Source of the DNA: an uncultured Planctomycetaceae bacterium
GTDB taxonomy: Bacteria; Planctomycetota; Planctomycetia; Pirellulales; Thermoguttaceae
Assembly: GCA_964618095.1 (NCBI GenBank)
Contig: CAZUAM010000069.1
Span: 1-16,838, forward strand
Direction of reading: 5' to 3'
DNA length: 16,838 nt
Part shown: positions 6,696 to 13,240 of the stretch, in pieces
Position numbering within the stretch: position 1 is the first letter of the stretch
Layout of the letters: each line of letters begins with the position of its first letter
Position numbers and translations under genes: made by a program
Notes under the pieces: generated by a model
What the model saw: only the letters and a program-made list of their open reading frames with translations
What the model was told of the DNA's origin: nothing
Databases searched by the model: none

Positions 6696-6740
6696 ATTGC
6701 AAATTGAAAACTGAAAACTGCAAATTGCAAATTGGACCGG
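6696..6740. repeat. AT-rich heptanucleotide tandem array a, with about 6 units: ATTGCAA ATTGAAA ACTGAAA ACTGCAA ATTGCAA ATTGG.
   Basis: The 7-bp periodicity is perfect. GC content is about 30% in a genome of about 67% GC. The array lies between the eno stop (6790) and the next minus-strand gene start. It shares the 13-mer TGCAAATTGAAAA with the array at 13196-13240. Confidence 0.6.
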
Positions 6741-6789
6741 AGAGTGCAGGGGATCCTTGGCGCCGCCCGTCCGATCCGCTCAAGCCAGC

Positions 6790-8073
6790 TTAATCCCTCA
6801 TCGGAAACACCGATCCCCCGTAAAGCGCCGCCTCGCCGAGGATCTCTTCGATCCGCAGCAACTGGTTGTACTTGGCCATGCGATCGGTCCGCGAGGCCGA
6901 GCCGGTCTTGATCTGGCCGGTTCCCAACGCCACGGCCAGGTCGGCGATGGTCGTGTCCTCGGTCTCGCCGCTGCGGTGGCTGGTCACGCTGGTGTAGCCG
7001 TGCAGCCGGGCCAGCTCGATGGCCTCGACGGTTTCGGTCAGGGTGCCGATCTGGTTGACCTTGATCAGGATGCTGTTGGCGATGCCTTCGTCGATGCCGC
7101 GCTTCAGCCGGGTGGTGTTGGTGACGAACAAGTCGTCGCCCACCAGTTGGATCTTCCCGCCCAGCTTTTCGGTCATCAGCTTCCAGCCCTCCCAGTCGTC
7201 TTGGGCGAGCCCGTCCTCGATCGAGCAGATGTGATAGGGGTCGATCCACTGGGCGTATTGATCGACCAATTCACCCGCTTCGAGCTGTTTGCCCTCGACC
7301 AAGTAGCGTCCGCTCTGCTGGTCGTAGAATTCGGAGGCGGCCGGGTCCAGGGCGATGAAGACCTGTTGGCCCATCTTGTAACCGGCCTTCTCGGCCGCTT
7401 CCATGATCAGGTCCAGGGCCTCCTTGTTGCTTTTCAGGTCGGGAGCAAAGCCGCCCTCGTCGCCCACGTTGGTAGCCAGCTTCTTCGACTGAAGCACCTT
7501 TTTCAGGTGATGGAAGATCTCGCAGCCACAGCGGATGGCCTCGCTGAAGGAGTCGGCCCCCAGGGGCATGACCATGAACTCCTGGACGTCCACGTCGTTG
7601 TCGGCATGCTCGCCGCCGTTTACGACGTTCATCATCGGCGCCGGCAGCAGCCGGGCGCCGACCCCGCCCAGGTAGCGGAACAGCGGCAACTCGCAGTGAT
7701 CGGCCGCCGCATGGGCCGCGGCCAGGGAGACTCCCAGGATGGCGTTGGCCCCCAGGCTCTTCTTGTTCTCCGTGCCGTCGATGGCGATCATCCGCTGGTC
7801 CAGGGCGACCTGTTCCAGGGCGTCCATGCCGCAGAGCTCGTCGGCCAGCGTGTCGTTGACGTTATCGACGGCCTGGGTTACCCCCTTGCCGAGGTATTTC
7901 TCCTTGTCCCCATCACGCAATTCCCAGGCCTCGTGCACTCCGGTGCTGGCCCCGCTGGGCACGGCAGCACGGCCGAACGAGCCGTCGGCCGTGGTCACGT
8001 CGACCTCGACGGTCGGGTTGCCGCGACTGTCGAGGATCTGTCGGGCGCGGATGTCTACAATAGTCGAACTCAT
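6790..8073 (-). CDS. eno: Enolase (phosphopyruvate hydratase).
   Basis: The translation reads [26 protein letters not shown]...[17 protein letters not shown]...VGDEGGFAP...[13 protein letters not shown]-like ([14 protein letters not shown])...[18 protein letters not shown]. These are full-length enolase signatures over 427 aa. The start ATG at 8073 is preceded by GGAAAG. The longer ORF-track start at 8310 is an upstream extension through a repeat. Confidence 0.95.
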
Positions 8074-8314
8074 GTCTCGTCTTTCCATTAAAAAAGGCCC
8101 ACTGGCAGGATGGGGGATTCCGCGGCGGCGACGGTCGCGGGCCGCCCGGAGACCCTCGGAGCGCCCCATTGTGCCCCATCCGGCCGGAATTGACCAGCGG
8201 GGTCTGGGGAGGCCGCCGCCGCGGGCCGGCTGATGGCTTCTCCAGAGAATTGGCGAGCCATCGGCCCGGGAACGTCCACTTTCAGTAGTTCCAGATTTGC
8301 CATTTGCCAAACAC

Positions 8315-8397
8315 GGGTGGCCGGGGTCGAGCGCAGCGAGCCCCCGGAAACTCGGCCAACTGGGGGCTCGCTGCGCTCGACCCCAGCCACCCCTCGC
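8315..8397. repeat. REP/MITE-like palindromic element, copy B. It is a near-perfect hairpin of about 31 bp.
   Basis: The arms are GGGTGGCCGGGGTCGAGCGCAGCGAGCCCCC and GGGGGCTCGCTGCGCTCGACCCCAGCCACCC, which are reverse complements with one mismatch, separated by a 16-nt loop (GGAAACTCGGCCAACT). The 8-mer CAGATTTG flanks it on both sides (8292-8299 and 8400-8407). The core is homologous to the element at 3883-3960. Confidence 0.55.
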
Positions 8398-8811
8398 TCA
8401 GATTTGGAAGTACTGACTTTGCCACGGTTGCGGCCTATGCCAGGTTTGTCCGGAGTCCTGCGAATCGCAGATTCAAGGCCCTACTCTCCCTCCAGGAGAG
8501 GGTTAGGATGAAGGAGGGTGGCGAAGATTCTGCCCCTCCAATTCTCTCAGATGACGAATCTTCCTTTCCCCCAACCCTCCCCGGGAAGCAGAGGGAGGTG
8601 TTGGTGGAGTCCTCCGAACAAGCTGCAAACTCCCGGTCCGCCCTTGTTCATGCCATCGCAGCAAGGTACCCTGCATCATAGACAGGGCTTTGCGCCATTC
8701 AAACAAGGTGCTGCGCGGTTTGGGCATCGGGCGCATCAGGGCAGAAACGTGGCAGCCCTCGGCACCGAGTTGGACATGGAACTCAAACCTGCCACCGATA
8801 GGACGGGGATT

Positions 8812-11734: not shown

Positions 11735-11735
11735 G

Positions 11736-11790
11736 GAATGCTGGATGCTGAATGCTGAATGCCAAGTGCTGAATGCTGAATGCTGAACGA
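11736..11790. repeat. Heptanucleotide tandem array b, with about 7 units of (T/A)GAATGC: GAATGCTG GATGCTG AATGCTG AATGCCA AGTGCTG AATGCTG AATGCTG AAC.
   Basis: The 7-bp periodicity is strict. The array starts 2 nt after the stop of the coiled-coil gene and ends 32 nt before the SPFH start. It is followed by CTGCAATTAGGGAG, which contains the SD. The same TGCAATTAGGG precedes the minus-strand gene at 6680. Confidence 0.6.
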
Positions 11791-11821
11791 CAGAGAGGCC
11801 CTGCAATTAGGGAGTCTTCAC

Positions 11822-13189
11822 ATGGCGATACGTATGGAAGTGATCAAGTTTTTCGACGAGACGAACCGCTCGCTGGTTCATCGGGAGCCGCCGCAGGGCT
11901 CGACCGACATCAAGGTCGGTGCCCAACTGATCGTGCAGGAGAACCAGGAGGCGGTCTTCTTTCGCGACGGCAAGGCGATGGACTGCTTCGGCCCCGGCCG
12001 CCATACGCTGACCACGCAGAACGTGCCGATCATCACCCGGATCCTCACGATCCCCTGGCAGGAGTCGCCCTTCCAGGCCCAGGTCTACTTCGTCGGCAGG
12101 CAGACCTTCCTCGACCAGAAGTGGGGCACCCGCCAGCCGATCACCTTCCGCGACGCCGACTTCGGCATGGTGCGGCTGCGGAGCTTCGGCAAGTACTCCT
12201 TCCGCGTGGTCGACTCGGCATTGTTGATCAACACGCTGGTCGGCACCCAGGGGAAGTACACCACCGACGAGGTGAGCGCCTTCCTGAAGGACCTGATCGT
12301 CGCCCGGCTGGCCGACCTCCTGGGGACGTTGGGGATCAGCCTGCTCGATCTGCCGGCGAAGTACGACGAGGTCGCCGCGGGCACCCGGGCGAAGGTGACC
12401 GAGGAGTTCGGCAAGTACGGCCTGGAGCTGGTCGATTTCTTCATCAACGCGGTCACCCCGCCCGAGGAGGTCCAGAAGGCCATCGACGCCCGAAGTGCCA
12501 TGGGGGCGGTGGGAGATCTGAACGCCTTTATGAAATTCCAGGCGGCCAACAGCATGTCGAAGCTGGCCGAGCAGCAGGGCGGCCCGGGCGGCGGCATGGG
12601 GGCCGGGGCGATGGGGATGGGGATGGGGGCCGGGTTCGGCATGATGATGCCGGGGATGATCCAGCAGGCCATGGCCGGCGGCAGCCACCCCGCACCCGGG
12701 ACATCGCCGCCCGCCACGCCGGCTCCGGCTGCTAAGCCGCAAGCGGCCGCGGGGCCCGATTTCGCCGACCTGGCCCCGGTGACTACCGATCCGAAGTCGA
12801 TGGTCCGCAACGTGGCCCAGGCCGCCGGCTACAAGATCGCCGAGTCGGGCAACACGATGCAGATCACCGTCCCGATCGGCTCCCTGCGGAAGCAACTGGT
12901 CACAGTCGATTTCGGCAAGACCGACGAGTCGGGCCACTCGATGGTCGGCTACTGGTCGATCTGCGGCCCGGTGAGCGAGAAGAACGCCATGTCGCTGTTG
13001 CGCTACAACACGCAGCTCCTCCACGGGGCCTTCGCCGCCAGACAAGTCGGCGGCGCCGAGGTGGTCGTGATCCAGGCCAACCAGCTCGCCGAGACCCTCG
13101 ACCCGCTGGAGGTCAGCCGCGTCCTCTCGGCGGTGGCCTGGCAGGCCGACCAGGTCGAGCAGAAGCTCGTCGGCGAGGATGAGTATTGA
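11822..13189 (+). CDS. SPFH/Band-7 family protein (Band_7_1/YdjI-like N-terminal domain) fused through a Gly/Met/Pro-rich linker to a YbjN/T3SS-chaperone-like C-terminal domain.
   Basis: The N-terminus is [72 protein letters not shown]... It is followed by a typical SPFH core and the stretch [37 protein letters not shown]. The roughly 130-aa C-terminal domain ([30 protein letters not shown]...GYWSICGPV...[13 protein letters not shown]...) has the pattern of the putative sensory-transduction-regulator (YbjN) fold. The start ATG at 11822 sits 8 nt after AGGGAG. The ORF-track start at 11780 lies inside the tandem repeat. Confidence 0.85.
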
Positions 13190-13190
13190 G

Positions 13191-13240
13191 GATCCCAGAT
13201 TGCAGACTGCAAATTGAAAAATGCAAACTGTAAATTGACG
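13191..13240. repeat. AT-rich heptanucleotide tandem array c, with about 6 units: CAGATTG CAGACTG CAAATTG AAAAATG CAAACTG TAAATTG.
   Basis: It starts 2 nt after the SPFH stop and ends 33 nt before the permease GTG. It belongs to the same AAAYTGM family as the array at 6696-6740. It contains an extended -10-like TGTAAATT. Confidence 0.6.

Follow-up and report, generated by a model that had tools for sequence, protein, structure and literature searches.

Three tandem arrays of seven-nucleotide units, here called a, b and c, interrupt the intergenic spacers of a 16,838-nt contig from an uncultured Planctomycetaceae bacterium (GenBank CAZUAM010000069.1, assembly GCA_964618095.1; this whole stretch is referred to as the window). 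We read these arrays as heptanucleotide simple-sequence repeats (SSRs) of the class that includes the short tandemly repeated repetitive (STRR) sequences, the long SSRs (LSSRs) and the TAACTGA repeats, which would have been born locally by slippage in unconstrained spacer and subsequently filtered for the strand that they present in the messenger. The probability that we attach to this reading is about 0.62. An earlier note on this DNA had described the arrays as a family of AT-rich elements at 6696-6740, 11736-11790 and 13191-13240. All three are indeed present, arrays a and b by Tandem Repeats Finder and all of them by a lag-7 self-match scan, and they do form a family of short tandem arrays with contiguous 7-nt units rather than a clustered regularly interspaced short palindromic repeat (CRISPR), a repetitive extragenic palindrome (REP) or a set of iterons. 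Their affiliation with the heptanucleotide SSR/STRR class, including the TAACTGA and GGGNATC repeats, had been missed.

Tandem Repeats Finder placed period-7 arrays at 6695-6734 (array a, 5.7 copies) and 11736-11787 (array b, 7.4 copies), and did not detect array c, which is more degenerate than the other two. The lag-period scan, in which each match counts +1 and each mismatch -1.5, returned array a at 6695-6734 with a score of 23, array b at 11738-11787 with a score of 25.5 and array c at 13196-13237 with a score of 12.5. Among lags 4-15, the only lag besides 7 that scored at these sites was 14, twice the period, and the window as a whole held three arrays at lag 7 versus none at other non-triplet periods. 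In 200 dinucleotide-preserving shuffles of the window, which served as background, the mean number of such arrays was 0.055 and the best score 12.5. The score of array c equals this best shuffle score; its roughly six copies are degenerate, neighbouring units being ~74% identical. Despite its low score we consider array c credible, because array a and an array in another genome each have exact strings in common with it. The 13-mer TGCAAATTGAAAA was found exactly twice in the window, at 6698 within array a and at 13208 within array c. The 11-mer TGCAATTAGGG also occurs exactly twice, once on the minus strand at the end of array a (6691-6701) and once on the plus strand at 11802-11812, 10 nt before the start of the SPFH/Band-7 gene. 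Neither string turned up in the shuffles, and both had been recognized correctly in the earlier note. All three arrays are intergenic and consist of at least about four uninterrupted head-to-tail copies of 7 nt, drawn from the unit families CAAATTG, AAAACTG (present twice in array a) and GAATGCT. Over the intervals given before, their GC content is 36% (a), 47% (b) and 38% (c) in a window of 64.5%, and not some 30% in 67%.

The preference for a period of seven is shared by related loci. The DUF1570 protein and the SPFH homologues assign the window to the order Pirellulales of the Planctomycetota, close to Thermoguttaceae. The best genome match was 84% identical, and the best metagenome matches, L081 and L082, were 90% and 87% identical. 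After removal of near-duplicates, our comparison set comprised 147 loci including the window, 1.84 Mb in total. A first, smaller set of 1.22 Mb, made up of the window and 80 loci (81 sequences), was used for Tandem Repeats Finder counts, restricted to arrays of at least 3.5 copies. The lag-7 scan of the full set yielded 128 arrays, 111 of them intergenic and 17 scored as coding, while the intergenic arrays at lags 5, 8, 10, 11 and 13 numbered 5, 21, 10, 6 and 5, respectively. In the smaller set, Tandem Repeats Finder reported 64 arrays of period 7, seven of period 8, none of period 10 and one of period 11. Intergenic sequence, as delimited by a codon-usage gene caller that was seeded on orthologue-verified frames and missed only two verified SPFH genes, accounts for 27% of the total and contains 87% of the lag-7 arrays. 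The mean density of ~70 arrays per Mb is very unevenly distributed: of the 89 loci that reach 10 kb, 52 are devoid of arrays and the others have up to ten (chi-square p=1e-23), and array richness is a lineage trait.

The arrays in these loci have a median of 4.6 copies, with a maximum of 22.6, and their units, which we grouped by exact unit classes, are highly varied (TGACAAC, CAAATCC, GGGATTA, AGTGGAT, CCCTGTC and TGGAGGC among them), with at least seven distinct units in L061 alone. Single-linkage clustering of the units was dropped, as random heptamers likewise collapse into one giant cluster. Within units, with genome dinucleotide bias left uncorrected, TGA/TCA is enriched (50 units versus 27 expected, z=5.1), as are CTG/CAG (z=4.1) and AAT/ATT, and TA is depleted. 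The arrays average 53% GC, the extremes being 22% and 89%; AT-richness is a property of the arrays in the window and not, as had been supposed, of the class.

Comparison of orthologous junctions showed that the arrays are subject to turnover. At junction b, between a gene for a 169-aa protein and the SPFH gene, L082 (87% amino acid identity) has kept the GAATGCT array in place in a split form, with ~5 units remaining versus 7.4 in the window. The intervening 119-nt element, at L082 9830-9948, has perfect 19-bp terminal inverted repeats, GAGGATGTGAATCTTTCAA, and is single-copy in the sequences examined; it looks like a miniature transposable element with the heptamer array as its target. The closest relative, L081 (90%), has no array b. 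In its place, at L081 1813-1895, lies a palindromic element composed of GGAGGCGACTCCTGTCGCCGAT and its complement, which appears to be dispersed because a similar palindrome is found at L039 4904-4978. The spacer of L085 at this junction is ~25 nt long and free of arrays, and in L084 four copies of ATTGTAG/ATTGCAG overlap the stop. At junction c, downstream of the SPFH gene, L081 has five copies of TGAACAT/TGAAAAT from the stop onward, a GC-rich spacer and an inverted partner, CAGTTTT CAATCTG CAATTTG; L082 carries an inserted gene, and L085 an array-free spacer of ~8 nt. Junction a, downstream of the enolase gene eno, has six copies of TGAGGGT followed by five of TTCAATT/GTCAATT in L082. Judged by these comparisons, arrays change their units over evolution, are interrupted by small mobile elements, and disappear or give way to other sequence, and the junctions of relatives work without them. 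The earlier note had named absence from orthologous junctions of close relatives, with no difference in expression, as the outcome that would speak for neutral microsatellites; as far as presence alone is concerned, this is the situation for arrays b and c, L081 being without b and L085 without both.

The same picture emerged from the SPFH orthologues at large. In about 20 of 81, a lag-7 array with a score of at least 10 precedes the SPFH gene, with unrelated units, while others have array-free spacers of ~50 nt; the units at SPFH junctions are mostly unrelated from genome to genome. The arrays had been proposed to assist genes with a weak Shine-Dalgarno sequence. However, the SPFH gene of the window has a GGGAG motif 8 nt upstream of its ATG, and AGGAG-type sites are present in the orthologues with or without an array, many of which have short array-free spacers. 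The sequences compared thus portray the arrays as dispensable elements that turn over and attract insertions, with the SPFH junction still being a recurrent site for them.

The gene map of the window, built from codon-position GC and Pfam matches, agrees with the earlier observation that the three junctions are co-directional and that the SPFH gene is bracketed by two arrays. As a general property, placement between co-directional genes was not upheld: with SPFH junctions excluded, arrays occur in 5.8% of the convergent, 4.3% of the divergent and 4.2% of the co-directional junctions (p=0.65). The junction types carry arrays about equally often, and it is incidental that those of the window are co-directional. 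Within co-directional junctions, array starts are concentrated around the upstream stop, falling at -10 to +9 nt in 27 cases versus 18.5 expected under uniform placement (p=0.002). A TGA stop lies 1-6 nt ahead of arrays b and c, and the distance from the array end to the following start is 31 nt for b (SPFH ATG) and 32 nt for c (permease GTG). When their units are phased on TG, the register of b opens on the TGA of the 169-aa gene and that of c on the TGA of the SPFH gene. A start close to a stop and an end some 32 nt before the next start, much as described previously, thus characterize b and c. They do not characterize array a, whose distance is 49 nt from the eno stop and 86 nt from the downstream start, ATG 6608 (14 nt if the alternative GTG 6680 is taken); nor is the spacing fixed elsewhere, the distance from array to start in the orthologues being roughly 5 to over 60 nt. 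On four independent contigs, the gene calls likewise have the 181-aa product that begins at ATG 6608, and the L082 homologue of this small membrane protein starts at the equivalent MxxxE(N/D)PMP.

Several observations weigh against the view that the arrays are local products of slippage in unconstrained spacer. Among arrays located no more than 30 nt after a stop, 39 of the 45 that are skewed have more G than C on the sense strand (39:6; mean skew +0.49, p=2e-6), and among arrays near a start only, C exceeds G in 23 of 28 (23:5; mean -0.41, p=0.0015). The A/T skew of the same arrays is weak; a purine version of the test gave 38:9 after stops, and gene-flanking sequence in general is unskewed (0.50). 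This strand rule is hard to explain by neutral slippage alone, since it is shared by unrelated phyla and units. Array b obeys it, with G exceeding C after the stop. Arrays a and c read CAATTTG/CAGTTTT and CAAATTG/CAAACTG, respectively, in the sense of the mRNA, and are therefore alike on the plus strand and opposite relative to transcription; with one G and one C per unit their G/C skew is zero. The occurrence of this family in both orientations fits neutrality toward the strand rule, and it may be tolerated both ways because it has no G/C skew.

Furthermore, some units recur more often than expected. The CAAATTG class is the most recurrent, with six arrays in five genomes, whereas the largest class in 1000 composition-matched simulations had at most four. 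The 18-mer ATTGAAAAATGCAAACTG is common to array c and to an array at L019 1172-1206, and the 16-mer CAATTTGCAGTTTTCA to array a and L073. Arrays stand upstream of the SPFH gene in 24 of 134 orthologues versus 43 of 964 other junctions, a fourfold difference (Fisher p=2e-7). Downstream of it they stand in 12 of 128 orthologues (Fisher p=0.03 versus other junctions), and only three orthologues have them on both sides. Arrays a and b persist as families over about 12% protein divergence. In addition, five contigs of the same population, from four samples, carry an identical array a (L162-L165) or b (L161) with no change in copy number; all but L162 match the window at 100% identity throughout, and L162 differs only at one contig end, inside eno, and the comparison therefore has little bearing on the rate of slippage. 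Near-identical locus pairs are likewise the same at every comparable array.

The class to which we assign the arrays has a long history. Tandem heptamers have been known in Calothrix since 1990 (Mazel et al. 1990, cited in PMC4692102), and, according to the accounts of Mrazek 2007 given in PMC4679880 and PMC4692102, heptanucleotides are the most abundant class of long SSRs in many large, high-GC genomes of non-pathogens, for which polymerase slippage was proposed. As far as these accounts describe them, the SSRs of Mrazek, Guo and Shah 2007 resemble the present arrays in their head-to-tail 7-nt units, mostly intergenic location, dominance of period 7 (here in the window and the related loci) and patchy occurrence among lineages. 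In the STRR of Calothrix and Nostoc, too, one genome has several different heptamers, and each of them forms tandem arrays in many intergenic spacers; here, the host belongs to another phylum and has a far higher GC content, and the units of the window are not the three named STRR units. Dispersed reuse of units, which is characteristic of the class, is seen in the 13-mer shared by a and c and in the CAAATTG class of five genomes.

With the TAACTGA repeats of marine Beggiatoaceae, cyanobacteria and Bacteroidetes, which precede start codons and were suggested to act in translation (MacGregor 2015, PMC4679880), the arrays share the intergenic location, 'split' variant units, the absence of a predicted RNA fold and often the orientation toward a downstream start. 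Relatives even carry arrays of ACTGATA, ACTGAAA and ACTGACA, rotations or one-mismatch variants of that unit, rotations being found for example in L017 and L041. However, no exact TAACTGA unit is present in the window; the commonest category in Beggiatoaceae (BOGUAY) ends 1 nt upstream of the start, compared with distances of 31, 32 and 86 nt for the window arrays; array a is reversed; and many unit types coexist instead of one being dominant. The GGGNATC and GGGGA(C/T)T repeats of Xanthomonas and Nostoc are G-rich on the coding strand at or after a stop and on the non-coding strand before a start, and can form G-quadruplexes (PMC4692102). Their strand rule holds clade-wide in our set, in which relatives have arrays of GGGATTA, GGGGATT and AGGGGAC, and an independent data set thereby reproduces the rule that Rehm et al. 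(2015) described. In contrast, a quadruplex calls for four or more units, each with a run of at least three G, and no unit in the window contains a G-tract, which makes a quadruplex impossible; the co-directional preference reported by Rehm et al. is not seen in the present loci.

Heptamer-derived satellites, such as (GATAGRA)n in Chloroflexus, have been read as local replication errors, and Rhodopirellula baltica was listed as rich in satellites (PMC6749651). The satellites of Subirana and Messeguer 2019 share with the present arrays the scattering of heptamer-derived families over a genome; as far as it was searched, their survey does not describe position or strand rules, and the planctomycete clade figures in it only as one genome-level count. 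Beyond this listing we found nothing in the searchable literature on heptamer arrays in planctomycetes, and no report on such arrays in Pirellulales or Thermoguttaceae. By their defining features the window arrays belong with the heptanucleotide SSRs in general, here in a phylum for which such repeats had not been described, and are neither TAACTGA nor quadruplex repeats. On their own, three dispensable repeats of a described class carry little weight; what they do is to extend to Planctomycetota the puzzle of the seven-base repeats, which was noted in 1990, surveyed in 2007 and never explained.

If the arrays are indeed heptanucleotide SSRs of local origin, their history may have been as follows. 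A stretch of 7 nt in an intergenic spacer would be duplicated, and in arrays b and c the starting stretch apparently opened on the TGA stop of the upstream gene. Slipped-strand mispairing in replication could then make the array grow, shrink and become homogenized. Persistence would be limited to unconstrained spacer, past the stop and upstream of the ~30 nt that hold the ribosome-binding region. On transcription into intercistronic or untranslated RNA, selection might filter the strand found in the mRNA, leaving G-rich arrays after stops and C-rich ones before starts. Slippage as the generator, seeding from stop codons and selection behind the polarity are what we infer from the patterns described above. 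Any effect on expression is probably modest, for example through added length and a poorly structured stretch. Among the roles that had been put forward in the earlier note, that of slippage-prone repeats is best supported.

Alternatively, the arrays could be functional RNA elements, repeated single-stranded sites for S1, cold-shock protein, CsrA or Rho that tune initiation, coupling or premature termination. The identity of the G/C strand rule with that of Xanthomonas and Nostoc would suit this explanation, as would the lack of structure in the arrays as RNA, the ends of b and c 31-32 nt before starts and the recurrence of particular units between genomes; moreover, the enrichment of TGA/TCA and CTG/CAG ties the units to the TAACTGA repeats and their proposed translational role. 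We nevertheless hold it to be unlikely, considering the extreme diversity of units within one genome (b versus a and c in the window; at least seven units in L061), arrays that are missing or have been replaced at orthologous junctions of the closest relatives, the varying distance to the start, a Shine-Dalgarno sequence that is there irrespective of the array, the opposite orientation of a and c as one family relative to transcription, and a stop-codon content of units that is as composition predicts. A bolder form of this idea, and one that we find more doubtful still, is that heptamer arrays are strand-polarized cis-elements, G-rich in the messenger past stops and C-rich ahead of starts and with units enriched for a CTGA core, that act at the RNA level across phyla and set termination polarity or re-initiation between genes, in Pirellulales maybe together with the hairpin of the 17-mer CCGCTTGCGGYTTMGCA considered below. 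If true, it would unite cyanobacteria, Xanthomonas, Beggiatoaceae and planctomycetes through repeats on which, for example, Rho or a different protein that binds single-stranded RNA would land or from which it would be excluded. Mobile spread, in which a small mobile element carries or seeds the arrays or in which they move between genomes, is improbable. It would account for near-identical strings at non-orthologous sites, including the 18-mer of array c and L019, and for the frequent vicinity of dispersed elements (a REP-like palindrome in L040 and the conserved 17-mer in seven cases), and MacGregor proposed horizontal spread for the TAACTGA repeats. Yet no shared flank, terminal inverted repeat or target duplication was found around a, b and c, where only GGATCC is common, a 6-7-mer match that could easily be due to chance; the stop codon next to each of b and c sets the register of the array, which suggests local birth; and in L082 an element was inserted into the array, not the array into an element.

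A role at the level of DNA, such as binding of a nucleoid or regulatory protein, altered DNA structure, or replication signals like priming sites, strikes us as very improbable. The arrays do have a locally distinct composition (36-47% GC versus 64.5%), their units are enriched in CTG/CAG, and the inverted pairs of arrays in relatives could extrude as cruciforms. On the other hand, the diversity of units excludes a single sequence-specific binder, and the polarity tracks gene direction rather than simply position. Moreover, a period of 7 bp does not keep step with the turns of the DNA helix, and a planar bend is therefore not expected. We see just as little likelihood in contingency loci, where changes in copy number would switch or tune the expression of a neighbour as a form of bet-hedging, one of the options in the earlier note. 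In host-adapted pathogens, such SSRs consist of 1-5-nt units and are found within open reading frames (ORFs) or promoter spacers of surface-antigen genes. Short tandem repeats are the classic substrate of phase variation, and the copy number at junction b does differ between species (~7.4 in the window versus ~5 in L082). Apart from the slippage-prone short units, however, little is shared: the units here are 7 nt long and intergenic, outside coding frames and recognizable promoter spacers, and their neighbours are housekeeping genes or genes of unknown function rather than known surface-variation genes. No length polymorphism was seen, the copy number being the same in five assemblies from four samples, and Rehm et al. 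were equally negative for their own repeats (PMC4692102).

With respect to specific functions, no promoter or terminator consensus was present at the arrays, and a promoter or terminator function was rejected on this basis. No Rfam family was found in the window at gathering thresholds, nor anything relevant in five related loci at E values up to 1. Array b was less structured than shuffled sequence upon RNA folding (z=+1.5), and a and c gave weak hairpins of -6 and -10 kcal/mol (z=-1.2 and -2.1); with z values of +1.5 to -2.1 and such small energies, stable RNA structure was discarded as a defining property. An AU-rich ribosome standby site or translational enhancer would be an unstructured A/U-rich tract in fixed sense orientation right before the Shine-Dalgarno sequence, required for efficient initiation. 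The arrays are unstructured and lie upstream of starts; the orientation differs between a and c, orthologues that have no array retain the Shine-Dalgarno sequence, and array b has 47% GC. A cassette of stops in all three frames, which a 7-nt unit with a stop codon would create, was also rejected, since stop-containing units after stops numbered 23 versus 21.5 in letter-shuffled units, the stop-codon content of units matching the expectation from composition. REPs are palindromic units, CRISPRs have repeats of at least 24 nt with unique spacers, and iterons are units of 17-22 nt near a replication gene. REPs and bacterial interspersed mosaic elements, CRISPRs and iterons were set aside, as the units in the window are 7 nt long and contiguous, with no spacers.

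The features of the window and the listed features of related loci are compiled in Table 1.

Table 1. Arrays, genes and other mapped features of the window, followed by features of related loci.
Feature	Position	Strand	Remarks
Array a	6693..6740	-	Minus-strand units CAATTTG CAATTTG CAGTTTT CAGTTTT CAATTTG CAATTAG
Array b	11732..11790	+	Units TGAGGAA TGCTGGA TGCTGAA TGCTGAA TGCCAAG TGCTGAA TGCTGAA TGCTGAA
Array c	13187..13240	+	TGAGGAT CCCAGAT TGCAGAC TGCAAAT TGAAAAA TGCAAAC TGTAAAT TGACG; degenerate
TGCAATTAGGGAG	11802..11814	+	SPFH Shine-Dalgarno GGGAG joined to CAATTAG
GC-rich hairpin GCCGCCG-TGCC-GGCGGCGGC	6664..6688	-	Between array a and downstream start; absent from L082 orthologue
guaA-like gene	3-1235	-	
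surE		+	
HD-domain protein	4621-6012	+	
Small membrane protein	6063..6608	-	181 aa from ATG 6608; ORF runs upstream to GTG 6680
Enolase (eno)	6790..8310	-	Upstream of array a
GH81 glycosidase	8518-11100	+	
169-aa protein	11225..11734	+	Precedes array b; without Pfam match; conserved beside SPFH in relatives
SPFH/Band-7 gene	11822..13189	+	Arrays b and c on either side
ABC-transporter permease	13273..14799	+	Downstream of array c; start GTG
DUF1570 protein	15029-16189	+	
Inverted array pairs	L017 6918-7002; L019 4634-4774; L039 2482-2553; L057 4274-4358; L061 2875-3013 and 16949-17023; L081 3295-3420; L082 5606-5844		In L082 a 158-nt array is paired
CCGCTTGCGGYTTMGCA			L002, L011, L017, L026, L029, L039, L040, L041, L061, L062, L083, L086, L146

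The longest SPFH ORF (469 aa) begins within array b, at an ATG at 11780. The orthologue alignment, which matches ATG 11822 to residue 1 in most cases, identifies ATG 11822 as the true start. For annotation, this means that the arrays mark constraint-free spacer and mislead gene callers, as in the spurious ATG 11780. The CAATTAG within TGCAATTAGGGAG is possibly a relic unit of a CAATTTG-type array that became fused to the Shine-Dalgarno sequence. This reading of TGCAATTAGGG at 11802 is suggested by L073, which has a CAATTTG/CAGTTTT array at the same junction, with CAATTTGCAGTTTTCAATTTG just upstream of the SPFH start. The GH81 gene sits between eno and the 169-aa gene and is not at that position in the syntenic L081 and L082, which makes this a lineage-specific insertion or loss. 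From 3200 to 4620, ~1.4 kb of the window are without a confident gene; codon-position GC is weak there and several overlapping ORFs compete.

Inverted pairs, in which an array is followed by a short spacer and an array of the reverse complement, are frequent in relatives and could give rise to long imperfect hairpins; the window has none. On one planctomycete metagenome contig (L138 18194-18283), tandem TTGGTCA, which we take to be the cyanobacterial STRR2 unit, occurs together with the near-complement AATGACC.

The 17-mer CCGCTTGCGGYTTMGCA may form a small hairpin with a CUUG loop, and its variants AAGCCG..CGGCTT and AAACCG..CGGTTT look compensatory. Its 18 intergenic copies in 13 genomes are mostly sense-oriented after a stop, and it has no Rfam match. 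Seven of 19 copies lie no more than 60 nt from a heptamer array, the usual order being stop, G-rich array and 17-mer. The sole copy in the window (12730-12745, minus strand) falls within SPFH coding sequence and probably arose by chance.

The spacer between the permease and DUF1570 genes (14858-15029) contains a cluster of other repeats. A perfect direct repeat of 24 nt is present twice at 14858-14904, and a REP-like palindrome, CGCGAC(C/G)-N3-GGTCGCG, occurs at 14899, 14939, 14971 and 15003, the last three in tandem units of 32 nt, so that the family spans 14899-15019. A fifth copy lies at 1317 (1317-1333). Shuffles give 0.1 matches to the palindrome. The same palindrome was found in L001, L002, L039, L040 (beside a CAATTTG array), L081 and L108.

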